IMG/VR virus record: IMGVR_UViG_3300042295_001683
Span: 1-64,000 of that record
DNA length: 64,000 bases
Reading direction: 5' to 3' (one strand)
Source: a virus
Lineage: Duplodnaviria; Caudoviricetes
The notes beneath the pieces were generated by a model that made no database searches, had not been told where the DNA came from, and saw only the letters and a list, made by a program, of their open reading frames with translations. Numbering within the stretch: position 1 is the stretch's first letter; every line of letters begins with the position of its first letter. Both the position numbers and the translations under genes were made by a program. Shown here in pieces: positions 6,003 to 48,643 of the stretch.

Positions 6003-6446
6003 TCATAGTAAAGATTTTAAAGAGCTAATTAGTTTTTCGATCGTGGTAATATCTGCAATTTGGGAAACAGTCTCAACCTCAGAGCCAGTTCTCAACTTGT
6101 ATTTAGAGAGCCAAGCAGCAAGGCGATCGCTTACTGGTATTTCACCAAGTTTCGCTTCAAGTAAAGTTAGATTTTCTTTGAGTTCTGTATCTAAATCTTT
6201 GCGCTGATTCACTAAAGTTTTACGCTTTTCTACCAGCTTTCCAGCCAATAAAATATAGTCGTAAGGATCTTTAATCATTGCAGTAGTAGTCACCACAGGG
6301 GGAGAGATTTCGCCTATCTCTTGCAGTGCTGTTGTTAGGATTTTTTGTGATTCATCTTTGCCAACGTAAGCGGCGATTAATTCCAATTCTGTTTGTTTGG
6401 CAATGATGAACTGTGAGAAATCAGGGGCTAGGGTGTTAGTATCCAT
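6003..6446 (-). CDS. Hypothetical protein
   Basis: 147-aa ORF overlapping the dnaB stop. Confidence 0.6.
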   Translation of the reverse strand: MDTNTLAPDFSQFIIAKQTELELIAAYVGKDESQKILTTALQEIGEISPPVVTTTAMIKDPYDYILLAGKLVEKRKTLVNQRKDLDTELKENLTLLEAKLGEIPVSDRLAAWLSKYKLRTGSEVETVSQIADITTIEKLISSLKSLL

Positions 6447-7794
6447 GATTTGCTCTCAGATTAGAAACTGTAGAGTTCGCACCATCCCACAATAGTTTTA
6501 CTGTTCCAGTTCTCCCATAGCGATTCTTTAAAGTGATTAACTCTAAAATGCCTGTGTCTACTGTGTCTTTGTTGTAGTATTCATCTCTATAGCAGCCAAT
6601 CATTAGATCGCTAGCTTCTTCTACTCCACCTGATTCCTTGGCACTATAAATCGTTGGGCGCTTATCTCCTGATTGCTTAGTATCGCGCCCAATTTGGCAT
6701 AAAACTACGATGCGAGTATCTAACTCTTTTTTGAGTTGATTAAGCTCTTCTAACACATAATCTACACGCTCTCTAGTTAGCATGTTTTGATTTGTACGAA
6801 CCAATGTTAAGTAGTCAATCCCAATCATCCCAATAGAGCCATGCTCAGCATAAAACTGTCTTGCAATAGAGACAATATCTTCAATCTTTCGGGCGCGATC
6901 GTTGACCTTCATAGGTAAACCCGAATAGTTCTCTTGAGCTTCCATCAATACGCCCCATTCTTCAGGCTTAATGTGACCGTTTTGCAATGATCCTGTACTG
7001 ATTTGAGCGTGTTTAGAAAACAGTTTCTGAGCTTGTGCTGAGCTGCTCATCTCAAGAGAAAAGAACAATGATGGCTGTCTCATCACGTAAGAAGTGTAAG
7101 TCAGTAGCTCAAGTAGTACGGTAGTTTTACCCATGCCAGTGCTACCAAGTATCGTTACAAGTCTTTGCCTTGGTAGTCCACCTGATAGCAAGTAATCAAG
7201 ATCTTTGAATCCAGTCGGCAGGATCGATTCGTGAATATTGCCTGTTTCCCTAGCCTCTGCAATCTTGGTTAGGTTTATAAACTCTTCTCCCATGACATCA
7301 AACATTAAGCGGGTGTGACTCTCATCACCTTGCAATGCCCGAAATTCTACGAGTTTTTGCTCAAACCATGAAAGCGAGTCTGCAAATTCACGCTCTTGAA
7401 AAATGCCTTGAGCCTCTCGGCAAAAGTCGCGATACTTTCGAGATTTATACTTTTCTCGGATTAGCTCGGCATATTCGACAATGCTAGGAGACGGTAAATG
7501 ATTCTCGTACAGGGCAAAAATGGCGGCGCGATCGCTTAGGTTTGGCGGTAAACCTTTCATTTCGCGCTTGGTTGCCATGTGCTGATACACAGATTCAGGG
7601 CTAATATAACCACCTGAATTAAATAATTCTACGCAGGTATTAAAAATTTGACCGTGAAGGGCTGTATAAAACATCTCGCTAGTCAGTATAGGGGTAACAG
7701 CCTTTATCACGTCCTGAGAGCTTAATACTGTGGCAATGACGATATTTTCTGCTACGACTGAGCATAGACTTTCACCAGTTGATAGATCTTTCAT
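6436..7794 (-). CDS. dnaB: Replicative DNA helicase, DnaB family
   Basis: PTGFKDLD, Walker A GSTGMGKT, FFSLEMS, IDYL, ESGGVEEASD, KNRYGRTG. Confidence 0.95.
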   Translation of the reverse strand: MKDLSTGESLCSVVAENIVIATVLSSQDVIKAVTPILTSEMFYTALHGQIFNTCVELFNSGGYISPESVYQHMATKREMKGLPPNLSDRAAIFALYENHLPSPSIVEYAELIREKYKSRKYRDFCREAQGIFQEREFADSLSWFEQKLVEFRALQGDESHTRLMFDVMGEEFINLTKIAEARETGNIHESILPTGFKDLDYLLSGGLPRQRLVTILGSTGMGKTTVLLELLTYTSYVMRQPSLFFSLEMSSSAQAQKLFSKHAQISTGSLQNGHIKPEEWGVLMEAQENYSGLPMKVNDRARKIEDIVSIARQFYAEHGSIGMIGIDYLTLVRTNQNMLTRERVDYVLEELNQLKKELDTRIVVLCQIGRDTKQSGDKRPTIYSAKESGGVEEASDLMIGCYRDEYYNKDTVDTGILELITLKNRYGRTGTVKLLWDGANSTVSNLRANHGY

Positions 7795-8804
7795 GATGCT
7801 TTCCTAGCTAATTTGGCGGCGTATTCTCTTGCCATGCTTGGCATTGGTGCGATGATTTCGGGTTCTTGCACTGCGATCGGGGCGGGCTGCTGTTGCGATC
7901 GCTGGGTTTTGGATTCTAAAAAGTCTTGATAGCGATCACGGGATTCGTCCCATCGTGAATCGCACTTGTCGTTTTTGGGTTCTATAGCAACCCGCACCCA
8001 TTTCCTAGCATCCGATGAGTCGCAAGATGTTTTGTAAGCGTCCCATCGCTTCATCAAGGGAATTAAGAATTTTAAAAATTCTTTGTCGCCTATCATCTTC
8101 TTAACTTCAGGTTCACGTTGCCTTACTTCCATCGCTCGTTGATACGGATCGATAAATTTCAGGTTTTGCGGGGCGGGGGGATTAAGGGGGGTGGGGTCTT
8201 GATTTTCGGATTTGTCTTCAAGAGCGATAGTTTCTTTTTTTTCTTCAGGTAAAGAAATTTCAATTTTGCAAGACGCTTTCATTTTTTTTTCTTGCGCTCT
8301 TAAAAATGAATTTGGATCTGAGTTTGGATCTGGATCTGCATATGGATCTGGATCTGCAATCGGGACATTGAGGGACAGGTCATTTGTCCCTAATGTGTCC
8401 CTAGGGACAGGTAAGGGACATTCAATATTTAGTAATGCCTGAGCGCGTTGATTTCGCTTCTTTTCAGCCTCTTTTGCTTTACGTTGCATGTAAGCATCTG
8501 CACGTTCCATGACACCTGAACTGTAAATAATATGCTCTTGCCATAGCTGCTTATTTATCAAACCCAAATCAGCCAATGTGTCGAAATATCTAACCAACGT
8601 TCGATCGTCTGTGAGGTTTAGAGATCGTGCCAATCGCTTCATCCAAACATTAGTAGCCTGAATCTGAAAGCCAGTATCTTCAGCTCCGTATAACTCCTCA
8701 AGAATTACCCAGAAAAAGCCATATCCTGCTAAACCGTGAATGTCGATTAGCTCAAAAATCTGGTCATCTTTTCGAGAGCCAATCTCATGATTGAAAAATT
8801 TCAT
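7791..8804 (-). CDS. Phage replication initiator (DUF4373/Lin1244-like N-terminus)
   Basis: FFNHE...HGLAGYGFFWVILEELY N-terminal signature; directly upstream of dnaB; internal iterons. Confidence 0.75.
   Translation of the reverse strand: MKFFNHEIGSRKDDQIFELIDIHGLAGYGFFWVILEELYGAEDTGFQIQATNVWMKRLARSLNLTDDRTLVRYFDTLADLGLINKQLWQEHIIYSSGVMERADAYMQRKAKEAEKKRNQRAQALLNIECPLPVPRDTLGTNDLSLNVPIADPDPYADPDPNSDPNSFLRAQEKKMKASCKIEISLPEEKKETIALEDKSENQDPTPLNPPAPQNLKFIDPYQRAMEVRQREPEVKKMIGDKEFLKFLIPLMKRWDAYKTSCDSSDARKWVRVAIEPKNDKCDSRWDESRDRYQDFLESKTQRSQQQPAPIAVQEPEIIAPMPSMAREYAAKLARKAS
8311..8421. repeat. Iteron cluster / putative replication origin within the initiator gene
   Basis: Five GGATCT units (8314-8355), then six GGGACA/TGTCCC hexamers (8362, 8372, 8385, 8396, 8404, 8415), next to T-rich tracts at ~8230-8310. 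Confidence 0.7.
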
Positions 8805-11988: not shown

Positions 11989-12576
11989 TTATTCAAAAAA
12001 TCCGCATCCTAGATGTTTGCGACCTCCCAACCCTTTCTCTTGTAATATTAAAGACTCGTTAGGGCGCAAATCTGAAAACATTACAGGGTATACAGCACAC
12101 GGTTGCTTTTTAATAATTAGCTGCTCCTTGCGCCCTATTGTTGGCAGTGTATTAATATCAAACTTTGTTAGTTGCTTGCCTAGCGACACCGCAAACCTAG
12201 TAAGATCGGGTTCACGATTGTTGTCGGTTTTAATTGATACCCAAGCCGCTAGATTCTCTTGAGATTTTAGCTCTGTGCCATTAACCAGCTTGAGTTTAAT
12301 CAACTCTTTGCCTAAATGGATTTGACAATCAAAAAGCATCGTTAGCTCTGTAATTAAATCTTTGGAGCAACGTAGCTTTATAGTGCTTTGAGTTAAACGT
12401 AATGTGCGATCGTCAAAAATATTTGTGTTACTGATTCTACTGATCGCCCACTCAGGGTTATCTTTGAGCTTAGGAGATAAGCTGGTCAGCGCTGAATATA
12501 AGCAATAGTGATAATTCCGTGGGATTAACACCCCTTCAATACTGAATAAAAATTCTATAAAATTGCAGTTAGGCAT
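11989..12576 (-). CDS. cas6: CRISPR-associated endoribonuclease Cas6 (Myxan/Cmx6-like)
   Basis: N-terminal F-x-I-x-G-x-x-IP-x-x-Y-x-Y-x-LYSAL; C-terminal SLILQEKGLGGRKHLGCGFF G-loop. Confidence 0.88.
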   Translation of the reverse strand: MPNCNFIEFLFSIEGVLIPRNYHYCLYSALTSLSPKLKDNPEWAISRISNTNIFDDRTLRLTQSTIKLRCSKDLITELTMLFDCQIHLGKELIKLKLVNGTELKSQENLAAWVSIKTDNNREPDLTRFAVSLGKQLTKFDINTLPTIGRKEQLIIKKQPCAVYPVMFSDLRPNESLILQEKGLGGRKHLGCGFFE

Positions 12577-12928
12577 TGATAATCACCAATCTTTTTTCAC
12601 TATCTACAGGTTGATGCTTGTTTGCAATAGATAAAAGAAAAAGCCCGTCATTTCCAGCCCTTACCCTATGAGGTTGCGAACCGTCTATAAAGTAGCAAGT
12701 TCCTTTGATGATTGGTTGTGTTTCATCGCCGCAATCAATCCATCCAGACCCCTCTACTCCAAACAAAATATGATCACCCTCATGGGTATGAAGAGAAGTT
12801 TTTTCGTTAGGTGCGAAATTCAACATGTCAGCAGCAAAGCCGTCTTTTTTTACCAGTGGCAATCCGATAGCTTGACTGCCATACATCTGATACCAGTAAT
12901 CAGCATCTAAATAATTTTTAATTTGCAT
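12569..12928 (-). CDS. Cupin domain protein
   Basis: LHTHEGDHILFGVEGSG and IDGSQPHRV metal-binding cupin motifs. Confidence 0.85.
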   Translation of the reverse strand: MQIKNYLDADYWYQMYGSQAIGLPLVKKDGFAADMLNFAPNEKTSLHTHEGDHILFGVEGSGWIDCGDETQPIIKGTCYFIDGSQPHRVRAGNDGLFLLSIANKHQPVDSEKRLVIINA

Positions 12929-13586
12929 ACAATAATCCTTTTAGGTATTCAAAATATTCTGGCGAAATCTTGCGAAACTCTTCTAATCTTGTAGCTTGAT
13001 ATTGATTGTTAGTATTTTTGCTGACATGATCTGTAGTTCGTTTTGCGCCTAAATCATAGGCTTTTAGGTATGGTAATTCATGGGAAAGCGTATAAGCCCA
13101 AATATCGTTTTCACTCCAATTAAAAACAGGGCAAGCTCTGTAATCTCCTTTTTTGTATTGATAGATAGCGCCATTTTTTAGCAAGGTTGCTTTACGTTTT
13201 GCGCTTTCTTCTATCCGCAATCCAACAAAAGCGACAGGATAATCAATCCATAATTTTTGTGACTTAACTTTGTTAGGGACATGATCGCCTTGCATCAAAA
13301 TAGTTTGAATGTTTAGCCCAAATTTGTCCTGATATTTTGATTCTGTTTCAGCATAATTACTAATCATTTCTCTTTCATAATGTCCAAAAGAAATAGCCAA
13401 AATATTAGGACAAATCGACTGCACCAAATGAAGCATTACGACTGAATCCTTACCCCATGACACCGCAACATAAGAAGGAGCGATCGCTAAAGCCTCTCGA
13501 ATAATCTCTTTAGCTTTCTCAACTTTGCGCTTAAATGTTGGCAGTGTCGCATGAGCTAAGAATGCATCGCGTTCTATTCTCTCCAT
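12918..13586 (-). CDS. cysH: CysH/PAPS-reductase family protein (type IV-B accessory)
   Basis: PP-loop SWGKDS, FVGLRIEESAKR, PVFNWSENDIWAY. Confidence 0.9.
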   Translation of the reverse strand: MERIERDAFLAHATLPTFKRKVEKAKEIIREALAIAPSYVAVSWGKDSVVMLHLVQSICPNILAISFGHYEREMISNYAETESKYQDKFGLNIQTILMQGDHVPNKVKSQKLWIDYPVAFVGLRIEESAKRKATLLKNGAIYQYKKGDYRACPVFNWSENDIWAYTLSHELPYLKAYDLGAKRTTDHVSKNTNNQYQATRLEEFRKISPEYFEYLKGLLYAN

Positions 13587-14260
13587 ACATTATCCGTTGG
13601 CATATAGCATATAGTTCTATTGGATTGCAGAAAATACGGTGTTCGCCACCCCCAGTTCATCATATTGATAGATTGAGGTTGTGGAATCATATTAATTGGC
13701 ATTGGTCGGGCTAAACTTTCACCTCTCCACAAATGCCAATCATGTTCAAAAGGAAGTACTTCCCATTTGTGTACCTGCCCGCAACCTTGCGATCGCTTCT
13801 TACCAAGATGCGTAACATTTAGAATTAGTTCGCTAATCTTGTCAGCATTGCCAATCGCAAACCAGTGTATAGTCTGCATTTCGCGATCATATCGTGGTAA
13901 ATCATAGGCTTTAAAATGCCCTTGCGAACTATCAACCTTAGCTTTCTTTTTACCCCAATCAAGGTGTAGTTCTTGCTTGTCCCATCGCTTACGGTAACGC
14001 TGAGTTTGTTGATGATTTTCGATGTAATGTGGTGAACTCACGGCCCAATACCACTCGCCTTTAAGCGTCTTCCGAGCGATCGGCATTTCATCAAAAATCA
14101 AGGGCAGATTCTTTTCAGCATCCGCAGCCGTTGGATTAGGCGTGATTAACCCTAATTGGTCTAACAATTGATACTCAATCAGGGCATCAAAGCTAGGGGA
14201 CCAGTCATCATAGGCAACTAGCGGCGTTGCCATGTGTGCAATTATTTGGAGGTTATCCAT
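13574..14260 (-). CDS. csf3: Type IV CRISPR Cas5-family RAMP Csf3
   Basis: LQIIAHMATP...FDALI, WFAIGN, LGKKRSQGCGQVHKWEV, RPMP, RTPYF. Confidence 0.85.
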   Translation of the reverse strand: MDNLQIIAHMATPLVAYDDWSPSFDALIEYQLLDQLGLITPNPTAADAEKNLPLIFDEMPIARKTLKGEWYWAVSSPHYIENHQQTQRYRKRWDKQELHLDWGKKKAKVDSSQGHFKAYDLPRYDREMQTIHWFAIGNADKISELILNVTHLGKKRSQGCGQVHKWEVLPFEHDWHLWRGESLARPMPINMIPQPQSINMMNWGWRTPYFLQSNRTICYMPTDNVWRE

Positions 14261-15461
14261 TCAATAAACTCCTAATATCGCTTTTAGAATCAGCAAGAAA
14301 TCCTTTGTAATCTTCGAGATATTCTTTATACCTTGCATGAGATTCAGAGGCGCGATCGCTTAATTTCTGAGCATGAGGTGTAATCGTCATAAACTCACCG
14401 CGATCGCCCTCCGCAGTCTCAAACCAGAATTGCATAGAACATAGTCCGCAACCCGTTCCTGATTGACCGCCTAAGTATGGCGATTCAGCAAACTTGAGTA
14501 AAGCATCAGCAATAAATCCTTCTTCGATTCTGGTGACGTTTGCGCTCCAATAAGAGTACAAAGTAGCACCTGTTTGAAGTAGCCAATTACCCATGATCAT
14601 CTGTTGGCTTTTCTCTCTTTCGGGCTTTGCTTTGTCACCTTTCCCTTTCTTAGTTTCTTCAGAAACTATGCCAAATAGATCGCCTTGAGAAATCATCTTT
14701 TGAGGTTCTGGAGTAGCGCCGATCAAATGTTTTGCAAAGTTAGGATCGTGAAGTGAATCGCGCCTTGTCTTTTGGCTATAGGTAAGCCAATCGGAATAAT
14801 ATCGAAGCCTTTCTCCCAAGAACGGCATCCATTCAGCAAGCAATGCCTTTAGATCGTAATTATTAACATCCGAAGGAGAACCATGATGTAGCCATTGATT
14901 CACTCGTTGACTATGCTGTAAGTCTTTGCCATCGATAATCTGCTCTAGTGCTGGTATGACTTCGATTGGCAACGCAGGGGGGAACATCTGATAAAGATAC
15001 TTAGCGCTCTCTACACAAGCCAAATAAGCATCACCAACAGCGATCCGACCGTGCACCATTTGAGCATCGGATACACCAAACAATCCTTTAGGTTTGGCGG
15101 TTCCTAGTACTGAGAGGCATGGCAAAAGCTGACGGATTTTTCTATCCAAATCCAAATCATTACCCGTGCCACCATCAATCGCGCCGCCACAAAATAGAGC
15201 GTGATGCATCGTTGGCGATACTTGCACACCAATCTGAGATAAGAAAGAATCAATACCACACCGCCTTAAAATTCGATTGCGTAGTGAGTTGCCAGAAAGT
15301 GTGAAAACTTCAGAGGGATTGCCTTCTAAATCCGTCACCTTCATTGTTCGCAAGTTTGTTTGATTGCCTACGGACTCACTGATATGGGACAAAGGCTGTA
15401 GCAAAGTAATCTGCAAATGTAGTTTGATATTATGGCGATCGTGTGGGTTGTAATTAAGCAT
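14253..15461 (-). CDS. csf2: Type IV CRISPR Cas7-family backbone Csf2
   Basis: ITLLQPLSH, SGNSLRNRILRR, LFCGG, LSVLG, TRRD, G-loop LGGQSGTGCG. Confidence 0.88.
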   Translation of the reverse strand: MLNYNPHDRHNIKLHLQITLLQPLSHISESVGNQTNLRTMKVTDLEGNPSEVFTLSGNSLRNRILRRCGIDSFLSQIGVQVSPTMHHALFCGGAIDGGTGNDLDLDRKIRQLLPCLSVLGTAKPKGLFGVSDAQMVHGRIAVGDAYLACVESAKYLYQMFPPALPIEVIPALEQIIDGKDLQHSQRVNQWLHHGSPSDVNNYDLKALLAEWMPFLGERLRYYSDWLTYSQKTRRDSLHDPNFAKHLIGATPEPQKMISQGDLFGIVSEETKKGKGDKAKPEREKSQQMIMGNWLLQTGATLYSYWSANVTRIEEGFIADALLKFAESPYLGGQSGTGCGLCSMQFWFETAEGDRGEFMTITPHAQKLSDRASESHARYKEYLEDYKGFLADSKSDIRSLLNG

Positions 15462-15978
15462 TGATAGTAGCCTCTACATCTAGAGTATTTTCTGTTTCTT
15501 CTGGAATATTCAAAGCGCGATCGCTTTCAAAGCGAACACGACAATAAGTAGTAATAATGTGCGGTCTTGATTTGCACAAACCGAGGATATGGCGATCGCT
15601 TATCCCGTGAGGTTTAAGAGAGTTGAGAATATCTTGCCATCCGAGCCATTGCAAATGTTGATCGCTATCAATTTGCTGAATGTCTCCCATACTGCCATCA
15701 TCATTCACAGTAGCCCGTAAAACCACTTGTTTTGGCGCGATTATGCGAGTCCATTCTTTTGGGTTGAGGTGTGCAACAATAAGCTTCTTGGCTAAATTCT
15801 CAATGTAGTCGTCGATATTGCGAGAGGGAATAGCAGCATTTTGGATACTGCTTTGAAAATATTCCCATGTTTTTAAGCCCATGGCAGGGCTTTTGCCCTT
15901 GTCTCTACAGCGAAAAACCCAGTAACTAAGCGCACTGGCTAAAGCTGTAACCCTGTCTTCCGTTTCTATTCCATACAT
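15454..15978 (-). CDS. Putative Cas11-like small subunit
   Basis: Helical 174-aa ORF (WEYFQSSIQNAA...IDDYIENLAKKL) coupled immediately upstream of csf2, the position of cas11 in type IV-B. Confidence 0.55.
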   Translation of the reverse strand: MYGIETEDRVTALASALSYWVFRCRDKGKSPAMGLKTWEYFQSSIQNAAIPSRNIDDYIENLAKKLIVAHLNPKEWTRIIAPKQVVLRATVNDDGSMGDIQQIDSDQHLQWLGWQDILNSLKPHGISDRHILGLCKSRPHIITTYCRVRFESDRALNIPEETENTLDVEATINA

Positions 15979-16006: not shown

Positions 16007-16348
16007 TTATTCTAGATCACAAACAGCATTCCAAGCCGCCAACTTAGCTTTACCGACAGACACACCACGCGCCCTAGCATGGTCAAAAGCTTTATTACGC
16101 AGTCTACTTAACTCACGCGCCCGCATCTCCTTTGGTGTCGCCTTACGCAGTTTAGGAATAGCGCGATAATTACCCTCAACGCATTCAATATGCAAGCGCC
16201 TGTTACCGTATGCGATCGCGCCTTGGTTAAGAAGTAAGCGCAATGCGCTCGTATTGATTTGCGTGCATATTTCGATATAGCGCAGAGAGTAAGAGCCGCG
16301 ATGGGTGGTAAAAAAGCCGATGAGCTTAGCTCGTTCAATTTCTTGCAT
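16007..16348 (-). CDS. Hypothetical basic protein
   Basis: 113-aa ORF; no Csf1 Cys motifs visible. Confidence 0.55.
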   Translation of the reverse strand: MQEIERAKLIGFFTTHRGSYSLRYIEICTQINTSALRLLLNQGAIAYGNRRLHIECVEGNYRAIPKLRKATPKEMRARELSRLRNKAFDHARARGVSVGKAKLAAWNAVCDLE

Positions 16349-17986: not shown

Positions 17987-18229
17987 TTATCCTTTACGCT
18001 CCTTATTCCTTAATCCAGCTTCTCTAAGCGTGCTTAGAACTACTGCCGCAGTCCAAACGCATGTAAACACTGCAATAAATAGCAATCCCTTACCTAATGG
18101 CTGCCATACGAACCAGAAAAAACCCGCGATCGGTATCAGAAAAACAAAAGTTAAAGCGAAACAACCGCCAAAAGTTGATGCTGTTGCTTGTAGTTCTTCC
18201 TTACTGTCAGACTCAAATAATCTAGCCAT
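17987..18229 (-). CDS. Small membrane protein
   Basis: Two hydrophobic segments, basic C-terminus. Confidence 0.55.
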   Translation of the reverse strand: MARLFESDSKEELQATASTFGGCFALTFVFLIPIAGFFWFVWQPLGKGLLFIAVFTCVWTAAVVLSTLREAGLRNKERKG

Positions 18230-18759
18230 TATCCTTTACTCTCCTGTGTGTCTAAATCACCGTTGTATCTTCCAGTCTCTGAGTAATCATGCCTTGGGTA
18301 AGCCGTCTCAGCAAAAACAATTTGACCGATTCGCATCATTGGATAAATAGGTTGCCAAGCCCAAAGACGATGATTTAGTAATTCTAAAGTCAGCTTTGAA
18401 TTATTAAAACCACCATCAATCCATACTGCCAAAACGTGCCCCCATCCTGATCGCCCTCTACTTGACTTAAGTCTAAACTCTGCTGAGTAATTACTCGGCA
18501 TATTGAAAGTCTCGTAGGTACAAGTCAGAATAAAACTTAGTGGCGATACCAAAAACGGGTTTGATTCTGAGTATTTGGTTAAGTCATGAGTAGTAAACTC
18601 TTGACCTGTTAGACATCGTTTAAGCCAGTTATTCTCAGTTTTCAGTGTGTAGCCTATCCGCACATCGAGTGATTGTGGGTTAAGCATTGCTTTGTCAAAT
18701 GGCACGATAACGCCTTTTTCTTCGCAAAGCTTTTCGATTTCGTGGTCAACTAGCGTCAT
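18229..18759 (-). CDS. dcd: dCTP deaminase
   Basis: NPQSLDVRIG, LKSSRGRSG, WIDGGF, LTLEL, MRIGQIVF, GRYNG. Confidence 0.92.
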   Translation of the reverse strand: MTLVDHEIEKLCEEKGVIVPFDKAMLNPQSLDVRIGYTLKTENNWLKRCLTGQEFTTHDLTKYSESNPFLVSPLSFILTCTYETFNMPSNYSAEFRLKSSRGRSGWGHVLAVWIDGGFNNSKLTLELLNHRLWAWQPIYPMMRIGQIVFAETAYPRHDYSETGRYNGDLDTQESKG

Positions 18760-38089: not shown

Positions 38090-39976
38090 CTATAAAGTAG
38101 CTAATCCGATCATTGTATTTGGCTTAATTGGATTGTAATTAATATACAAATCTGCTAAGCCGATCATTGTAGAAGGGGCGATCGGGTTGAAATTTATACG
38201 TAAATCTGCAAGCCCGATCATATTAAAATTGCCTAACGTAATCGCAACGGGGCGCGATATTACCGTAGGGGTGCTAGCGGGGGCTGTACCAACTTCGATA
38301 CCGTTAAAAACTAACCATGCTTCTGTCCCATTTAATCCCCATTTAATGCAATCTAATTTTAAGTAATAAATTAAATCTGCGTCTGTCACCGCTACATCCG
38401 CAAAAGGCTTAAAAGCACTACTTAAAGCTGTGTCAGTAATCGCGCCGCCAAATTGCTGACCATAAGCACGCCCTGATAATATGCGATTAAATCGAGAGCC
38501 ATAATCAACTAATTGAGACTGATCAACTGTGTAGGGTACATCTATTGTTCTTTGCCTTGGTCGGTACGGATCGGCGGCTAATTGCTGTGCAAATATTTCT
38601 GCTTTTAGCTGTACTTCTTCTGTAGTGTTTGTGCTTGCATCACCAAAATTTGTAGGTGGGCCAGACGTATCTTTATCGTCGCTAAAGTTTGCCGCTGTAA
38701 ATAGCACAGTAGGATTTTGATCGCCTAATGCCGTCCCTTTAAAAATTACTCCTGCTGGTTCATGTCGAGTATAAGTTTTAATCCATTTTTGCGATCCTGT
38801 GTTTACCCATTCATAATCTTCTCTTTTAGCCGTAATTAGTACTGAAGGATTTTGATCGCCAAAAGTAGTTCCTTTTATAATTACCCCTGCTGGTTGAAAA
38901 GATGTTACAGTTTGAGCCGTAACAATCCCATTGACAAGAGTATAAGTATTTATGGATTTGTCAGATATAAATAGCACAGTAGGATTTTGATCGCCTAATG
39001 CCGTCCCTTTAAAAAGTACCCCTGCTGGTTCGCGTGTTTCTATGGTTTTTTCAAAAAATGTTGAACTTATCTCTGATGTGGTTATTGTCCTTTTAGCCGT
39101 AAATAACGCGGTAGGATTTTGATCTCCAAAAGTAGTCCCTTTAAAAAGTACCCCTGCTGGCTGTGTGTCAATTACTTCGCTAGGTGCGGTGTCTACAGGT
39201 ATTATTTCTTTTACCGTACCTGTAACTATTAATTTTTCAATTGGTTGTTCTGCGATATCACCGATCGCGTCCCATAATTTTTCGTCAGAGCCAATTATAT
39301 AAGAAGCGATAGCACTGCCAGAATAGATGGCACTGATAGGCTCTGCGATTACCGTACCAGCGCTATTGCATCGCAAATAGTACCCTGCACTATCAGCGAT
39401 CGCCCCTGCAAATCCAATAAAATTACCAGTTTGCTTTGGCAGTGGATAGGCGATCGGATAGGGGATAGAGTCAATCGAATTAGCAACGTCGATATAGTTA
39501 AGGATATTTGTGATTACGGTATTTCTTGCTAATGGTGTACCCGCCGTAATACCAGATATATCTTGATTTGGTTCGGGTGGAAAATTCTCTAAAGCTAATC
39601 GACAGCCAATTTCCAAAGATAATTCTAATATGCCATCCATATTCCTTTTTGGTTTTTGAGGCATTTTTAGCAAATGCAAAGCTTGCCCACTACAAGGCAG
39701 ATAAGTAAGCGTTCCTGATGTATTTGCAGTTCGGATCGTGACTAGTTGACCCCGTTTCCATTGACTAGGGTTAAGTCTAGGATTAGGTGAACTTGGCACG
39801 GTTGAATCGTAGCGAGAAATTTTAAGATTAATGGAGCCTGTGACTGGCATTAATCCAGTCCCAACCTCATATTCTGGATAACCCAAAATTATTCCAGAAT
39901 CAAAGCTAATCCAGTTAGTCCAATTTTGCGATCCTATAATTAATTCGCATCTGCGAGATGAGAGATTAAGCGTCAT
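38090..39976 (-). CDS. Putative tail hub/baseplate protein with internal repeats
   Basis: Four PAGV(L/I)(F/I)KGTxxGDQNPxxL repeats and three MIGLA repeats; position in the tail operon. Confidence 0.65.
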   Translation of the reverse strand: MTLNLSSRRCELIIGSQNWTNWISFDSGIILGYPEYEVGTGLMPVTGSINLKISRYDSTVPSSPNPRLNPSQWKRGQLVTIRTANTSGTLTYLPCSGQALHLLKMPQKPKRNMDGILELSLEIGCRLALENFPPEPNQDISGITAGTPLARNTVITNILNYIDVANSIDSIPYPIAYPLPKQTGNFIGFAGAIADSAGYYLRCNSAGTVIAEPISAIYSGSAIASYIIGSDEKLWDAIGDIAEQPIEKLIVTGTVKEIIPVDTAPSEVIDTQPAGVLFKGTTFGDQNPTALFTAKRTITTSEISSTFFEKTIETREPAGVLFKGTALGDQNPTVLFISDKSINTYTLVNGIVTAQTVTSFQPAGVIIKGTTFGDQNPSVLITAKREDYEWVNTGSQKWIKTYTRHEPAGVIFKGTALGDQNPTVLFTAANFSDDKDTSGPPTNFGDASTNTTEEVQLKAEIFAQQLAADPYRPRQRTIDVPYTVDQSQLVDYGSRFNRILSGRAYGQQFGGAITDTALSSAFKPFADVAVTDADLIYYLKLDCIKWGLNGTEAWLVFNGIEVGTAPASTPTVISRPVAITLGNFNMIGLADLRINFNPIAPSTMIGLADLYINYNPIKPNTMIGLATL

Positions 39977-41968: not shown

Positions 41969-42547
41969 CATTACCCAATAGTCTAGCCATAGTGCTACGT
42001 TATAAGGCGATCGCGCGATCGCCTTTTTTGTTGGATAAATTAGTTGTAAATAGTACTTGACAAATAATATTTAAGCGTTTAATATTATATTCAAGGTTAA
42101 ACATACAAAAGGAGCAAGACCATGACTAAGATTGAAGTTATTGAAGCGATTAACCAAGCATCTAAAGCTTGGGAAGATGTATACTATATTGTTGTCTGTC
42201 GATACATGACAAATAGGAAATACGGGGGCTTAGTAAGAACTTACAGCTATTTTTACGAAGGCCCGTCACTAGAAAGAGCTTTTGTAAATGCACAAGATGC
42301 GTTTAAGGAAAGAGATGCAAAGGTTACTTTAGTGACGCTATCTCATGCCAATTCTTTTCTTGGGGTAGAAACCGAACTAAGCAAAGAAGCTGTTGTCTAA
42401 CAGATCATTACCCAATAGTCTAGCCATAGTGCTACGTTATAAGGCGATCGCGCGATCGCCTTTTTTGTTGGATAAATTAGTTGTAAATAGTACTTGACAA
42501 ATAATATTTAAGCGTTTAATATTATATTCAAGGTTAAATATACAAAA
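41969..42547 (+). repeat. 142-bp direct repeat (terminator + promoter unit) flanking one gene
   Basis: 41969-42110 vs 42406-42547 with one mismatch; contains the hairpin AAGGCGATCGCGCGATCGCCTT+T-run and TTGACA-17-TAATAT. Confidence 0.9.
42122..42400 (+). CDS. Small accessory protein with a chimeric N-terminus
   Basis: AAGGAG RBS; first 19 codons nearly identical to the 41736 ORF. Confidence 0.65.
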   Translation: MTKIEVIEAINQASKAWEDVYYIVVCRYMTNRKYGGLVRTYSYFYEGPSLERAFVNAQDAFKERDAKVTLVTLSHANSFLGVETELSKEAVV

Positions 42548-42563
42548 AACAAAGGACAAACAA

Positions 42564-42776
42564 ATGACAAAAAAATTGTTCGGGTATTGGGAAGAAGACA
42601 TGGATGGGAGCACTTGCGGATACTTCGTAGTATCCGCATACCAACCAGAATTTTTTGCAGATTGCGAAGAAAATTTTAACGATGAGCATGAGCTTGTCGG
42701 AGCGTGGTGTGACAGCCATGCTTTGAAAACCAGGATCAAAGATCTTGGTTTGGATTTGGAAGTTTCAGAGGATTAA
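42564..42776 (+). CDS. Small highly acidic protein (anti-defence candidate)
   Basis: 70 aa, D/E-rich, first gene after the repeated promoter. Confidence 0.6.
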   Translation: MTKKLFGYWEEDMDGSTCGYFVVSAYQPEFFADCEENFNDEHELVGAWCDSHALKTRIKDLGLDLEVSED

Positions 42777-42787
42777 GGTAAAAAAAT

Positions 42788-43306
42788 ATGTACGCATTTG
42801 ACAGAGACGGAGTATTGGTGGGTGAGCTAGGCAATTTCGCTGCCAGTCACCCGAAAAACTACAAGGGCGCTGAGATGCCCCTTATCAAAGAGGTGCTAGC
42901 CAAAGTACCGCCTCATTCGATCATTATCAGTAATCAAGCTGGCATTGATCGCGGCTATACCACACTCAAAGTGGTACAAGCTCAATTTGATTGGCTCATG
43001 GCGCAGCAGCCTAATTTTATCGGGGCTTTCTTTTGCCCTGATGAAGGGGAAAGTTGCTGGTTTAAGTTTTTTTGGGCAGACGAATGGACAGAGCAGTTAG
43101 CGATTGCCCCATACTTCAGAAAGCCTAATATAGGCTTGGGAGACTCCGCCAACGTGTATCTAAATCATTATGGGCTTGGCCAGATCACCCATTACATAGG
43201 AGATCTTTCTGGCAACCCCGCCTATGCTGAGGGTAGAGACAGCGATCGCATCTTTGCGCAAAATCTGGGCTGTGAGTATTTGGATGTGAATGATTTTTTA
43301 GCTTGA
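42788..43306 (+). CDS. HAD-family phosphatase (polynucleotide 3'-phosphatase/GmhB-like)
   Basis: AFDRDGVL, ISNQAGI, FCP, RKPNIG, YIGD...SDRIFA. Confidence 0.85.
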   Translation: MYAFDRDGVLVGELGNFAASHPKNYKGAEMPLIKEVLAKVPPHSIIISNQAGIDRGYTTLKVVQAQFDWLMAQQPNFIGAFFCPDEGESCWFKFFWADEWTEQLAIAPYFRKPNIGLGDSANVYLNHYGLGQITHYIGDLSGNPAYAEGRDSDRIFAQNLGCEYLDVNDFLA

Positions 43307-43497
43307 GCCTACAGGAACGCCGCCCTGTAGGCAGACCACGAAGTAGTGATCACTATGCTCAATTAAATTTACGTTTGCCAATGGCAATAATTGAGAAGAT
43401 GAGAGCGATCGCCCTATCTGAAGGATTTATCACTCAGATAGGCAAGCACAAAGGAGAGCCAAATATTAGCGGATGGCTCTCTAATAAATATAAGTAG
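43303..43497 (+). CDS. Small AT-hook/RHH-like regulator
   Basis: RPVGRPRSSD, QLNLRLP; paralog of 41482. Confidence 0.65.
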   Translation: MSLQERRPVGRPRSSDHYAQLNLRLPMAIIEKMRAIALSEGFITQIGKHKGEPNISGWLSNKYK

Positions 43498-43738
43498 CTC
43501 CTCTCTATGCTATATTTTGATTGCGTTAAAAATTTGGCTGATCTAGATCCTAAGGAGCTAAGGAGAACCGAAAAGCTAAGATTTGTGGATTTGTAATGAT
43601 TTTTTGAGAGTTTGAAGGCGATCGCGAGGTCGTCTTTTTTTGTGGGTAAAATTATTTTTAAAACATGGTTGACATTACTAACGTAATCAACTATATTTAA
43701 ACACATCAGGAAAACGCAACACGCAAGGAAACAAAGCA

Positions 43739-44179
43739 ATGACTACACTACTAGGAATCACAGATGAGAATTTAGGTTGCGCTTGCTGCGGTCGTACGGA
43801 TTTAAAGCGTTATGCAGTTATTCAAGATAATGAAGGCGAAATTGCTACTTACGGTAGTGACTGCGCTACAAAAATCTTAGGTAGAAAAATTTCTACTCAA
43901 AGAAATCTACCTAAGATTCAAACTGAAGACATCAAAAACATTACTCCTTTTGTAGAAGTAACTGTTTATAAAATGCATATCAGCCGACGTTACAACTTTG
44001 TAACCCGAAGCTATGAATGGGGATTAACCCTTCCTGTCAGCCCTAAACAAGTTTTAAAAACACTCAAAGAAGACTACGAATATTACGTTGAAGAGAATAT
44101 TCAAAACCGTCCCCTTGATGCTATTAAAACTGCCATTAATCTTTTAACTGAATACACGACTCAATATGCCCAAACCTAA
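43739..44179 (+). CDS. Cys-containing accessory protein
   Basis: CACCGRTDLK...YGSDCA; promoter TTGACA(43669)-17-TATATT. Confidence 0.65.
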   Translation: MTTLLGITDENLGCACCGRTDLKRYAVIQDNEGEIATYGSDCATKILGRKISTQRNLPKIQTEDIKNITPFVEVTVYKMHISRRYNFVTRSYEWGLTLPVSPKQVLKTLKEDYEYYVEENIQNRPLDAIKTAINLLTEYTTQYAQT

Positions 44180-44387
44180 CCCCGCAAACCCATACCATTG
44201 CGATCGCCCTATGCGTCGCAATGGTAAACAAGCCAAGTCAGGGGCAGTGCAATATCGCTGCAAATGTGGCTTTACCTGTACCGATGGCGATCGCCCCGCA
44301 CACCGCCCCCTATTAGGTGATGCGCCTTTGACGCAAGTTGAGCGTAATCGTAGGTATAGAGCTAAGAAGAAAGCTAATTTAAATTAG
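44166..44387 (+). CDS. InsA-like zinc-ribbon DNA-binding protein
   Basis: HCDRPMRRNGK...QYRCKCG; GDAPLTQVERNRRYR; paralog of 59127-59396. Confidence 0.65.
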   Translation: MPKPNPANPYHCDRPMRRNGKQAKSGAVQYRCKCGFTCTDGDRPAHRPLLGDAPLTQVERNRRYRAKKKANLN

Positions 44388-44462
44388 TTGCAAATAGTAG
44401 TTGACAAATACAGGATATCGATCAATAATAGATCGTTGAGTTAAACAAGCAAGGCAAAAACA

Positions 44463-44783
44463 ATGACACATTCTTTAGATGAAAAACAACCAACTCTTGA
44501 CAAGCTTATTGCAAGCCATCCAATGTTTGAGGAGCTAAAAACTATTATTGATTCTTTGATCTCAACTCGATATAAAAAAGTTAGAAAACTAGCTGGTCAA
44601 TCGTGGAAAGGCTACAGGTCAAATGCTCAGTATTTGAGTGAAGTCACTAAAAACAACAATCTTGGCAATAAAATTGCTGCTATGCAACGTCAAATCTTGG
44701 TTGATATTGATTTACTAGATGAAACTGGTTTTGCGTTTTTTAGAAACTATTCTGTTGACTGGGATAAAGTTAGAGCTTGGTAA
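44463..44783 (+). CDS. Hypothetical accessory protein
   Basis: After promoter TTGACA(44401)-17-AATAAT. Confidence 0.6.
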   Translation: MTHSLDEKQPTLDKLIASHPMFEELKTIIDSLISTRYKKVRKLAGQSWKGYRSNAQYLSEVTKNNNLGNKIAAMQRQILVDIDLLDETGFAFFRNYSVDWDKVRAW

Positions 44784-44784
44784 T

Positions 44785-44997
44785 ATGCCTAAATCACGCA
44801 CCGAAATCTATCGCGATTGCTATCTCAAGCGTACAGCAGACAAACTCCGCTACTACTGTACGCAATGCGATCGCCAACTCAGATCAGACTCACCTCTCAC
44901 TATTTGCCGCGCCTGTTGGCTTAAAACGGATGATGGCAAGCTATACATGCGACTGAAGCAAGCGGAATCAAGAGCTAAAAAAGTAGTAAAATATTAA
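44785..44997 (+). CDS. Small basic zinc-finger protein
   Basis: CTQC...CRAC; likely start MPKS at 44785. Confidence 0.6.
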   Translation: MPKSRTEIYRDCYLKRTADKLRYYCTQCDRQLRSDSPLTICRACWLKTDDGKLYMRLKQAESRAKKVVKY

Positions 44998-45058
44998 TGC
45001 GATCGCGGATGCTAGTCCCGATCGCGTGATCAACCTTATCCATTAATCGCAGGTCAAT

Positions 45059-46613: not shown

Positions 46614-46914
46614 CTTCCAATCAGCCGATCACTTAACCAGAAGTTTCACCACTATCGCCTCTCTTCCAATCAGCCGATCGCTTAACCAAAAGTTTCACCA
46701 TTCTGAGTTTCCAAAAATTGCAAATAACCTTGCCTTCCAATCAATTGATCGTCTAACCACTAGTTTCACCATGAACTAGAGCGCCGCTTTACAGCCTGTA
46801 TCGGTACTTCCAATCAGCCGATCGCTTAACCAAAAGTTTCACTGGACAAAATGACAATTTTATATGTCAGCTACCTTCCTTCCAATCAGCCGATCGCTTA
46901 ACCAGAAGTTTCAC
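46614..46914 (-). CRISPR. CRISPR mini-array: five 36-bp repeats, four spacers
   Basis: Repeat GTGAAACTTCTGGTTAAGCGATCGGCTGATTGGAAG (minus strand) at 46879-46914, 46807-46842, 46734-46769 (degenerate), 46663-46698, 46614-46649; spacers 36, 37, 35 and 13 nt from the leader end. Confidence 0.95.
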
Positions 46915-48643
46915 CTAACAGATCCCAAAAACCAAGCTGAGAGCCAATATTAGGATCGATTTGCGCGGATCGCTTACGAGATTGCAATTTAGAGTCGGCT
47001 TTAGATAGTGATTTTAAATCTTGCCATAGCTCAAAGTCTTGTGGTGATTGGTTTTCAGAGTTTGCGCGAGTGGTTAGGTTGCGATCTAGCTGTAAATCAT
47101 TGTCTGGTAAGGGCTTAAGCTTATCAGCTTCCAATCTTTTATCAGTACTATTTACAGCCCCGCTTTCGCGGTTGATTGCGGGAGTTGTTTCTCCTCCCGA
47201 TCCTTTCTTACTCTTGCGAGTCTTACTCGGTTGGCGCTTCTTCCCATGCGTTGCATGATCCACGCCCTTAAATTCCCCCGATGAAGCGGGGTATGGTATC
47301 AGTACCAAGCCTTTAAAAGCAACATTACGGATAACGGTTGAGGCGTTGTTATCTGCGTTGTCACCATGACCACAATTCAAGCATTTAAAAACAGCTTGAG
47401 ATGGTCGAAACTTTTCGGAATAGTAGCCACACTGAGAGCAACCTTGAGAAGTGTGCGGTGCGGGTACTTTCACAAATATTCTTTCTGATGCTTTAGATTT
47501 AGTCTCTAGCATCGTCTTTGTTTTACCGATCGCCACATCATGAAGCGATTTATTTAAACCAGCTTTAGCAGCCGATCCGTTGGGTAGAAAAGCGCCATTT
47601 TCACCAGCTTTCGCCTTTGGTGCGCGTACCATATTTTTAACTTTGGTATCTTCAATGGCGATGCTTTGATATTCACTTACATATTTTGAAGTGAGCTTAT
47701 GGATAAAGCGATCCCTTTGCCTAGCGATTTTAAGATGCGCTTTAGCTAGTTTAGAGCGTTTAGCTTTTAGCCTGTTAGAGCCATCTTTTGAGCGAGAGAT
47801 AGAGCGCTGAATACGAGCTAATTTCTTAGCTTGCATCTTTGCGTAACGCTTAGATTTGTGTAGTCTCCCATCACTATCTGCAATAGGAGCGACTACACCA
47901 AAATCTAAACCTACTTCTTGCTTTTTTGCTGGTTTAACGGGCTTTACATCTACCGTGCTAGTGAATTGCACATAATAACCATCAGCTTTTTGGACGATGC
48001 GTACAATCGTATGATTGCCAGCATAGCGACGGTAGAATCCCTTGCATTTGATTTGTCCTAGTCTTGGATAATCAATTAATGCATTGTCATTACCCAAGGG
48101 CAAAATATTAACGTATATCCGACCGTTGCCATTAGAAAAGCTTTCTAATTTATCAGCTTTCTTTTTGTAACGTGGTCTGCCTTTTTTTCCCTTGCGGTAC
48201 TGAGTCCATGCATCAATTAGGTTATCCACAACAGATCGCCGTGATTCGCCATCAATAGAGTGTAGAAAATCAGGACACCGCATATTAGCGATAAAGCGAT
48301 AATTTTTAACGTGCTTAAATGGCTCTTCAATATCCCGATGTTTGCGGATGTCGCATTTATCAGGATAGTAAGCACAGCAAAGCCCGTATTGATTATCAGG
48401 ATTTACATACTCAATCCCGTCGATTTTGCATGATTTTCGCCATTGCCATACTTCAGGACTATACTCTGCCCATTCTTGTTTTGCCCTCCAATAACGTTGC
48501 TGATCTTCCTCAAGCAGACTTAAACCAACATTCCATACCCATTTAAGTTGAGTAAGCCACAAATCAATTTGTGTGCTTTGCTCAATCGTGGGAGACAACT
48601 TAAATTCAGTTATCTTTTTAGTAGTGGCTTCATTGCTAGTCAT
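46898..48643 (-). CDS. TnpB-family RNA-guided nuclease, type V-U2 (C2c8)-like Cas12
   Basis: EFKLSPTIEQSTQIDLWLTQLKWVWNVGL N-terminus; RuvC VGLDFG / IAIED / NADNNA; zinc finger CSQC...CLNC; adjacent array; no tnpA. Confidence 0.85.
   Translation of the reverse strand: MTSNEATTKKITEFKLSPTIEQSTQIDLWLTQLKWVWNVGLSLLEEDQQRYWRAKQEWAEYSPEVWQWRKSCKIDGIEYVNPDNQYGLCCAYYPDKCDIRKHRDIEEPFKHVKNYRFIANMRCPDFLHSIDGESRRSVVDNLIDAWTQYRKGKKGRPRYKKKADKLESFSNGNGRIYVNILPLGNDNALIDYPRLGQIKCKGFYRRYAGNHTIVRIVQKADGYYVQFTSTVDVKPVKPAKKQEVGLDFGVVAPIADSDGRLHKSKRYAKMQAKKLARIQRSISRSKDGSNRLKAKRSKLAKAHLKIARQRDRFIHKLTSKYVSEYQSIAIEDTKVKNMVRAPKAKAGENGAFLPNGSAAKAGLNKSLHDVAIGKTKTMLETKSKASERIFVKVPAPHTSQGCSQCGYYSEKFRPSQAVFKCLNCGHGDNADNNASTVIRNVAFKGLVLIPYPASSGEFKGVDHATHGKKRQPSKTRKSKKGSGGETTPAINRESGAVNSTDKRLEADKLKPLPDNDLQLDRNLTTRANSENQSPQDFELWQDLKSLSKADSKLQSRKRSAQIDPNIGSQLGFWDLLGETSG
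46915..47140 (-). promoter_or_regulatory. Cyanobacterial-type CRISPR leader embedded in the nuclease ORF
   Basis: Two CGCGCAAA motifs on the minus strand (~47061-47068 and ~46960-46967), as recalled for cyanobacterial leaders. Confidence 0.55.

Follow-up and report, generated by a model that had tools for sequence, protein, structure and literature searches.

A type IV-B CRISPR-Cas operon with cas6 and cupin genes in a probable cyanophage genome

Of all CRISPR-Cas subtypes, type IV-B is, to our knowledge, the one understood least: it lacks an array and a nuclease, its RNA is not known, and its cysH-like gene is without a known role. The accessible parts of earlier work describe loci of csf1-cas11-csf2-csf3 with a cysH-like gene, and a complex from Mycobacterium sp. 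JS623 (PMC7937560, PMC8175902, PMC7038947). Here we analyze an operon of this kind at positions 11989-15978 of a viral DNA (Duplodnaviria; Caudoviricetes). The window, i.e., the whole stretch of 64,000 nucleotides (nt) analyzed, comprises positions 1-64000 of the 73403-bp IMG/VR record IMGVR_UViG_3300042295_001683, whose numbering continues that of the window and whose completeness is estimated by CheckV at 95%. In common with type IV-B, the phage has Csf1, Cas11, Csf2, Csf3 and a cysH-like gene, which are carried by a mobile element, and no array lies beside the operon. A search of the record for cas1 (TIGR00287) found none (cas2 and cas4 were not searched), and csf4/DinG (TIGR03117) had no match in the 73.4-kb record (models for RecD-type helicases and Cas10-like proteins were not searched). 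The locus differs from type IV-B in its cas11-csf2-csf3-cysH order, with csf1 last in the clade to which it belongs and about 50 kb away here; in an operon that ends in a Cas6 of the Cmx6 type, against the "no Cas6" criterion of the subtype; in a cupin (a Coq4-like protein in relatives) coupled to cysH; in the hosts of the clade, which are cyanobacterial phages and plasmids; and in a long, fully supported branch of the Csf2 tree that separates the clade from canonical loci.

Two other described systems are close. Type IV-A (csf1-csf2-csf3-csf5/cas6-dinG with an array) combines a type IV complex with a Cas6-family processing enzyme of its own and defined CRISPR RNAs (crRNAs), and provides the working model borrowed here. 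The phage differs from it in lacking DinG, in having Cas11 and cysH, in a Cas6 of the Cmx6/I-B kind rather than Csf5, and in having no cognate array beside the operon. The Fuxivirus IV-B loci of Bathyarchaeia viruses, for which a role in counter-defense or mobile-element conflict has been proposed, are likewise virus-encoded and include cysH-like, csf1, csf2, csf3 and cas11 genes and a mini-array in the viral genome; however, the viruses are archaeal, the mini-array is inside the IV-B locus, and the accessible text of the report does not mention Cas6 and reports no cupin (PMC10848311). Full-text literature searches found no paper joining type IV-B CRISPR with a cyanophage, none joining cupin, cysH and type IV CRISPR, and, for recent work on IV-B and CysH, no functional study of CysH.

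Six minus-strand open reading frames (ORFs), with ends that overlap or abut, fill positions 11989-15978 in the order cas11-csf2-csf3-cysH-cupin-cas6. An initial annotation made from the letters alone had proposed these identities, and profile searches named all six. The cas11-like small subunit gene (15454..15978; 174 residues) matched PADLOC typeIV_Cas11 at 5.7e-13 and nothing in Pfam or NCBIfam, and its product is 41% identical to that of the gene upstream of csf2 on the Gloeobacter plasmid pGMOR1. The type IV Cas7 gene, csf2 (14253..15461; 402 residues), matched PADLOC Csf2_0_IV at 4e-43 over residues 11-391, and the type IV Cas5 gene, csf3 (13574..14260; 228 residues), matched Csf3_0_IV at 4.9e-47. 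Because their scores with the NCBI equivalog models are far under the cut-offs (Csf2 with TIGR03115, only 22 bits against 130; Csf3 with TIGR03116, 1e-17, under the curated cut-off), both proteins are divergent members of their families. When compared with sister phages, the ratio of nonsynonymous to synonymous substitution rates (dN/dS) is 0.06-0.08 for csf2 and 0.11-0.13 for csf3. A terminator had also been proposed at the operon end, and reading by eye agrees: 3' of cas6, the minus strand has a hairpin and a T-run at about 11930-11902, although the automatic scan did not list them. Next, at 11873-11845, comes TTGACA-17-AATAAT, a promoter-like site close to the consensus that would serve the following gene. 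On the other side, 28 nt upstream of cas11, lies an ORF at 16007-16348 (113 residues), which is 92-100% identical in close relatives and fits no family in Pfam, NCBIfam or PADLOC; the ESM Atlas gave a sub-threshold winged-helix lead (score 0.86), and the ORF could encode a regulator or belong to the phage backbone.

Judged by its sequence, the operon holds most of a type IV-B effector set that is genetically complete, with csf1 encoded separately. When the whole record was searched with the Csf1 model, a check proposed beforehand, this gene was located past the end of the window, at record positions 66273-66962 on the plus strand (L001:1195-1884), about 50 kb from the operon on the linear map. 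Its 229-residue product matched PADLOC Csf1_0_IV at 1.8e-27 over residues 7-221, and TIGR03114 at 1.4e-10 with 36 bits against a cut-off of 140. Its counterpart in sister phage G001 (80 kb, with terminal repeats, 100% complete), which is likewise separated from the operon, is 98% identical, and that in sister phage G002 (75.5 kb, 100% complete; operon order cas11-csf2-csf3-cysH-csf1, no cas6), which lies in the operon, is 87% identical. No stops were seen in either comparison, dN/dS was 0.10-0.17, and the gene is intact and under purifying selection. The earlier statement that no Csf1 is visible is correct for the 64-kb window but not for the whole record. The complex without a Csf1 subunit, the reader of the protospacer adjacent motif (PAM), that had been built on this statement is not sustained: since csf1 is present and conserved elsewhere in the genome, the argument from a missing PAM reader is void. 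Just upstream of the relocated csf1 is an ORF (L001:710-1141; record 65788-66219) of a family that shares an 'ARFVSKK' stretch; ORFs of this family also occur between cas genes in sister phages (L021:11291-11836, L018:12487-12969) and may travel with csf1.

Relatives of the operon were found in viruses and on a plasmid. There are 22 viral loci whose Csf2 is 87-100% identical; many are cut by contig ends, and 8 have cas6, 3 have the cupin and 5 have csf1 in the operon. The Gloeobacter morelensis plasmid pGMOR1 carries all seven genes in one operon, cas11-csf2-cas6-csf3-cysH-cupin-csf1, and compared with the phage its Csf2 is 43%, its cupin (encoded between cysH and csf1) 45% and its Csf1 45% identical. 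Wider sampling with a profile from 17 diverse Csf2 sequences gave 55 viral loci. Of 247 stretches of metagenome contigs that matched the pattern, 116 proved to be relatives, and the 80 best of these were retained; a single-protein Csf2 scan of representative genomes gave 18 pattern matches, none of which was confirmed as a relative. Iterated hidden Markov models (HMMs) applied to 138 loci detected 134 cas11, 139 csf2, 129 csf3, 111 cysH, 100 csf1, 34 cas6 and 10 cupin ORFs, counts that include duplicates between collections. A Csf2 tree of 96 rows (95 non-identical loci from 126 loci with full-length csf2) splits 71 versus 25 rows, with long branches and a Shimodaira-Hasegawa-like approximate likelihood ratio (SH-aLRT) support of 100. 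The 25-row side holds canonical csf1-cas11-csf2-csf3-cysH loci; the 71-row side has csf1 last, and its ancestral order is cas11-csf2-csf3-cysH-csf1.

To compare the two sides of the tree, a census was taken of those non-identical loci in which csf2 is flanked on each side by 4 kb or more (39 from the clade and 6 canonical); these are not phylogenetically independent, several being close kin of the window. The core genes csf1 (33/39 in the clade, 6/6 in canonical loci) and cysH (37/39 and 6/6) occur on both sides. In contrast, cas6 was present in 17 of the 39 clade loci, the cupin in 6 and, in the cupin's place, a Coq4-like gene in 9, and none of these was found in the 6 canonical loci. C2c8-like genes occurred in 7/39 and 1/6 loci, and arrays in 4/39 and 0/6. 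Cas6 of the Cmx6 family and a small, putatively metal-binding partner of CysH (cupin or Coq4-like) appear to have been added repeatedly in the clade. The description of the locus as IV-B-like with an added Cas6 and cupin therefore stands as to gene content and both additions, which recur with csf2 in relatives, but not as to its Csf1-less part. The suggestion of an undescribed type IV variant has to be narrowed in the same way: the arrangement is recurrent and apparently undescribed, but with csf1 present its kind is the known IV-B. The accessible text of one survey lists Cas6 in IV-B among 'rare exceptions: only 12 instances', which may already include members of this clade (PMC7038947).

The cas6 gene (11989..12576; 195 residues) is of the Cmx6 (I-MYXAN) family, with 104.3 bits against a cut-off of 98.85 for TIGR02807 over residues 5-194; it also matched Pfam Cas6 at 7.4e-33, and the nearest solved chain is a type I-B Cas6, 8fcj_B (5.4e-10). 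Its C-terminal stretch is glycine-rich, which we take to be the known motif of the family, and its dN/dS compared with G001 is 0.15. In clade operons cas6 follows csf2, csf3 or cysH, or else stands upstream. A search for homologues returned 13 proteins only, none of them between 30% and 47% identity. This presence inside operons at several positions, together with the few homologues, suggests that cas6 belongs to the type IV-B module. The cas6 tree broadly tracks the subgroups of the clade, with long and weakly supported branches, and we infer that cas6 is an old clade member, often lost, rather than a fresh capture from a host. Since the clade has its own Cas6, the cas6-bearing IV-B complexes probably bind defined RNAs.

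The other two genes of the operon encode putative enzymes. The cysH-like PP-loop enzyme (12918..13586; 222 residues) scored 65 bits with Pfam PAPS_reduct (cut-off 22.5; 1.1e-17), and its PP-loop residues S43, G45, K46, D47 and S48 (SxGKDS) are invariant in 27 clade sequences. An AlphaFold model (mean predicted local distance difference test, pLDDT, 87.8) had PAPS reductase, TtuA and FMN adenylyltransferase as its best PDB folds. The protein has no Cys past residue 152, i.e., it is without a C-terminal cysteine; the accessible text of an earlier study describes Cas-linked CysH without the C-terminal catalytic cysteine (PMC8175902). The single-domain cupin (12569..12928; 119 residues; Pfam Cupin_2, PF07883, 35.7 bits against 27.2) has four His residues, H47, H49, H53 and H87, that are invariant in 32 sequences and are putative metal ligands. 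A set of 1.84 billion proteins contains only 188 representative relatives of this cupin at E <= 0.001, and its matches in the ESM Atlas were generic cupins only. Because the PP-loop residues and the four His are invariant, CysH and the cupin are both predicted to be intact enzymes.

The cupin is tied to cysH by position. In 58 clade loci with sequence downstream of cysH, the next gene was csf1 in 27, Coq4-like in 11, the cupin in 7, csf3 in 2 and cas6 in 1. The remaining 10 had no assigned gene there, among them pGMOR1, whose cupin was masked by an over-long ORF call, and L136, which has an antisense Cupin_2 ORF. All 7 HMM-detected cupins in this set stand directly after cysH, across differing gene orders. 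The Coq4-like proteins, of about 200-260 residues with an HDxHH motif (e.g., L015:12928-13518, L007:10242-11018, L059:12797-13573), form, with 18 ORFs, the largest of the unassigned families within the modules; one member scored 27.6 bits against the Pfam Coq4 cut-off of 22.9, and another was under the cut-off. Between the present phage and G001, csf3 is 97% and cas6 94% identical, whereas cysH reaches only 57%, and G001 has a Coq4-like gene in place of the cupin; cysH and its partner are thus exchanged jointly as a cassette. A search for fusions of CysH and cupin gave none: the 10 longer cupin-bearing proteins had no PAPS_reduct domain, and the two compared with CysH were without similarity to it. 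Other ORFs occur between cas genes of relatives, including one like a GIY-YIG homing endonuclease between csf2 and csf3 (L015:11199-11576), one with a DNA methylase domain in the usual place of cysH (L018:11809-12423), and, between cysH and csf1 (L021:13672-14786), a weakly glycosyltransferase-like ORF and a 157-residue ORF with an HxD...H motif.

The statement that the locus has no array is correct for the surroundings of the operon, but not for the rest of the phage. At 46614..46915, 30.6 kb from the operon, is a CRISPR array of five 37-nt repeats with spacers of 35, 36, 34 and 12 nt. It fills the gap between convergent ORFs, and its first repeat shares 18 nt with the 3' end of a gene for a C2c8/Cas12u2-like type V-U2 effector (46898..48643, minus strand; 581 residues; PADLOC Cas12u2, 1.9e-104). 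This protein has Pfam OrfB_IS605 and Cas12f1-like_TNB domains and scored 294 bits with NCBIfam V_cas_c2c8 (NF038192), under the cut-off of 350, and 189.5 bits with guided_TnpB, above the cut-off of 100; its homologue in L081 reached 487.6 bits with the C2c8 model, above the cut-off. C2c8 was reportedly assigned to subtype V-U2 by Shmakov et al. in 2017. The same arrangement of effector beside array is found in G003, L081, L128 and L140. Sister phage G003, which has truncated type IV genes and no cas6, keeps the V-U2 gene and a syntenic 7-repeat array with no spacer in common, and G001 and G002 have neither gene nor array. Since gene and array are kept together and missing together, the array is better explained as belonging to the adjacent V-U2 effector than to the type IV operon. 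Two genes upstream of the array lies the gene (45059-45919) for a BRO-N and KilAC protein of the antirepressor type.

The array is probably transcribed from the minus strand, because of the gene-then-array order, a distal variant repeat in G003, and a hairpin formed on that strand only; this hairpin, which runs to a class-1-like ATTGGAAG 3' end, is weak (-7.6 kcal/mol, z -1.3). Spacer 1 (46844-46878) matches the Pseudanabaena galeata plasmid pPg_01 at 34/35 positions and one flanking base (E 9e-8); the matched stretch is iteron-like, carries no annotation and lies beside a DUF3854 gene. Other comparisons gave little: the ten spacers of the present phage and G003 had only chance matches of 12-16 nt in four whole genomes and 22 loci; the array of the present phage had one chance 22-nt match among phages; three of its spacers matched, among viral contigs, only the same array in L054; the arrays of G003 and L081 had no match in plasmids; and the plasmid record W01 contained no copy of the repeat, which among viral contigs occurs in only three, from the same phages. 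A V-U2 locus in a cyanophage has already been published, according to the accessible text on vB_AphaS-CL131, where a TnpB-like C2c8 effector lies next to a short array and a spacer matches a primase pseudogene, as one matches the Pseudanabaena plasmid here (PMC6293099). This likeness concerns the neighbor system at 46.6-48.6 kb and not the type IV operon, and the accessible text of that paper contains no mention of 'type IV' or 'Cas6' (PMC6293099). In some relatives without cas6 (L081:13297-20840; L073, L079, L083, L128), one or two C2c8-like genes and arrays of up to 28 repeats come within 1-5 kb after the IV-B operon; L081 has two convergent arrays with related repeats.

What the phage Cas6 could cut was considered by comparing whole genomes. 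Among those with cas6, the present phage has the V-U2 gene and array, G007 a TnpB/C2c8-like gene beside a 5-repeat array, G008 an IscB flanked by arrays, and G009 I-E-type cas7 and cas5 beside one of two arrays, but G001 (100% complete) and G006 (96% complete) have IV-B with no array and no other guided system. Among those without cas6, G003 has the V-U2 gene and array, G011 a C2c8-like gene with an array in locus L079, and G014 a C2c8-like gene; G002 has none of these, and G010, G012 and G013 have no C2c8-like gene (their arrays were not examined). Thus, cas6 does not track V-U2 arrays across whole genomes. Because the two near-complete genomes, G001 and G006, carry cas6 and no array, Cas6 probably acts on RNAs made elsewhere; substrates from outside the phage, most simply those of host arrays, would be the economical choice. 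In G008, a provirus record that also has a cas6- and cupin-bearing IV-B, the IscB gene (L184:3073-4446, i.e., G008 43073-44446; guided_IscB 453 bits, cut-off 175) has arrays of a 36-nt repeat on both sides (42019-45367). The GC-rich G009, in which a cas6-bearing IV-B module occurs without any C2c8-like gene, encodes an I-E-type cas7 (Cse4, above cut-off) and a short cas5e (L186:2917-4609) beside the first of its two arrays (6124-6443 and 14644-14968), each of five repeats with a strong hairpin.

The operon lies in a replication and nucleotide-metabolism block of a tailed phage. Profile searches around it identified a DnaB-like helicase (6436-7794; the only helicase seen, of the replicative kind), a replication initiator (7791-8804), a dCTP deaminase (18229-18759) and a tape measure gene (49294-53229), and a P-loop kinase-like gene is, like the dCTP deaminase, among the operon's neighbors; the label "early region" given to this block initially is plausible. 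The octamer GCGATCGC, presumably the cyanobacterial signature HIP1, occurs 94 times in the 73.4-kb record, where base composition predicts less than one copy. There are 87-108 copies in the sister phages G001-G003 and none in the distant relatives G006-G009 (GC 36-57%), and since HIP1 is absent from the latter and GC contents differ, the clade covers phages of different cyanobacterial hosts. A Csf2 relative of 88% identity has been assigned by NCBI to a Pseudanabaena metagenome-assembled genome. The HIP1-rich phage is probably a siphophage of the Pseudanabaena type, with Pseudanabaena as its host. Neither the operon DNA nor the Csf2 protein had a match among GenBank phages. Contigs from two metatranscriptome runs of one study cover parts of the operon, with 2 differences in 250 and 2 in 190 letters over cas6; the remaining pieces are 85-96% alike and probably derive from relatives, and two further runs (X3, X4) had nothing on the operon; stretches of the operon left bare by the first two runs (X1, X2) are uninformative. 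These contigs are a weak hint of expression. Repeats seen elsewhere in the window include a 64-nt unit present four times within the ORF at 38090-39976 (38698-39163), a near-identical 142-nt duplication with promoter-like and terminator-like parts (41969-42547), and a 188-nt repeat pair (55308-56137).

The explanation that we favor, and to which we give an even chance, combines crRNAs loaded in trans, targeting without a nuclease, and chemistry by CysH and its partner. The genes of the module would be expressed alongside the replication genes. Cas6 would then cut repeat-bearing transcripts from elsewhere, either those of host class 1 arrays or those of other phage arrays, e.g., that of V-U2. 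On these crRNAs, Csf3, Csf2, Cas11 and Csf1 would assemble into a nuclease-free complex, which would bind matching nucleic acid, whether from competing elements or from the host. Effector chemistry, possibly of the adenylation type, would come from the PP-loop CysH and its metalloprotein partner, or the complex might merely block its target. A bolder form, which we regard as a long shot, has the IV-B complex as an RNA-guided carrier of a modifying pair: Cas6 would load borrowed crRNAs, Csf1 and Csf3 would read the target, and CysH with an exchangeable metalloprotein would mark, and not cut, the matched DNA or RNA.

Several observations weigh against the favored explanation. With cas6 missing in 22/39 clade loci and the cupin in 33/39, neither gene is essential to the clade, and the truncation of csf2, csf3 and csf1 in G003 indicates that the module can decay. 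The phage repeat, searched as a degenerate pattern, was not found in 185,579 representative genomes, nor was its 26-nt core found in the metagenome contig collection, and the link of Cas6 to any particular array or RNA substrate is hypothetical. The characterized IV-B complex bound heterogeneous non-CRISPR RNA, according to the accessible text (PMC7937560). The Csf2 tree covers this clade and csf1-first, cysH-bearing loci, without references for IV-A, IV-C, IV-D and IV-E. Some neighbors may be passengers, given the homing-endonuclease and other genes inserted between cas genes in relatives, and the contigs from RNA libraries may be DNA carry-over.

The main rival to this explanation is an anti-CRISPR sponge, in which the phage Cas6 and Csf proteins would process host crRNAs early and sequester them in an inert complex, starving host effectors. 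The initial annotation had arrived at this idea from the apparent loss of Csf1, a premise that failed, and the idea had already been raised in the literature, where IV-B correlates negatively with other subtypes (those named in the accessible text are I-B, I-C, I-E and II-C; PMC7038947). It is a live alternative, if an unlikely one: the cas6-bearing G001 and G006 are free of arrays of their own, the module sits among replication genes, no nuclease or helicase was found with the module in the csf4/DinG search, and the negative correlations would be expected of it. However, a sponge would need neither a conserved PP-loop enzyme nor a cupin with four invariant His, Csf1 is present and conserved, and 22 of the 39 clade loci would have to do without cas6. 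Pinilla-Redondo et al., as far as their accessible text goes, judged an anti-CRISPR of such complexity unlikely (PMC7038947).

In another rival explanation, the Csf proteins would form a guide-independent scaffold, a filament on arbitrary RNA that would merely organize or regulate CysH and its metal partner, which would modify nucleotides, DNA or RNA (e.g., for self-marking or anti-restriction), with Cas6 as a maker of RNA ends or a loading factor. The heterogeneous RNA in the solved complex fits this proposal, as far as described (PMC7937560). So do the near-universal cysH (37/39 clade loci), the gene with a DNA methylase domain in the position of cysH in L018, and the dCTP deaminase and P-loop kinase-like gene nearby. 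We nevertheless consider it quite improbable, because a repeat-specific Cas6 in 17/39 loci argues for defined RNAs, and because csf1 and csf3 are under purifying selection. Csf1 and Csf3 are the handle- and target-reading subunits in related systems.

Cas6 might instead serve the other arrays of these phages (V-U2, IscB-linked or I-E-like) and merely be parked in the operon. Arrays of several kinds do occur in four cas6-bearing genomes (the present phage, G007, G008 and G009), and the weak minus-strand hairpin of the repeat, with its class-1-like 3' end, could be read this way. But cas6 lies between csf genes in many orders, G001 and G006 have cas6 and no array, and G003, G011 and G014 have C2c8-like genes (with arrays in G003 and G011) and no cas6, all of which makes this reading very unlikely. 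That the operon is a decaying, functionless remnant of a plasmid-borne system was already disfavored and is barely credible, since the truncated genes of G003, the separation of csf1 from the operon and the mobile genes inserted in relatives are set against seven intact ORFs in the present phage, dN/dS of 0.06-0.17 for csf2, csf3, csf1 and cas6, and an architecture found in many metagenomes.

The clade described here offers a way into type IV-B, since it has its own Cas6 and reveals candidate partner enzymes of CysH, exchanged with it as a unit. Its phages include those of a culturable cyanobacterial genus, and these carry arrays, one spacer of which has a target on a host plasmid. Three questions thereby come within reach of direct tests: the identity of the RNA in the complex, whether targeting depends on complementarity, and the role of CysH. 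Freshwater cyanophage genomes gather several RNA-guided systems, i.e., IV-B, V-U2, IscB with arrays, and partial I-E. If the carrier form of the proposal is true, RNA-guided marking would supply the long-missing effector function of type IV-B, and the phage would be re-using the immune memory of its host.

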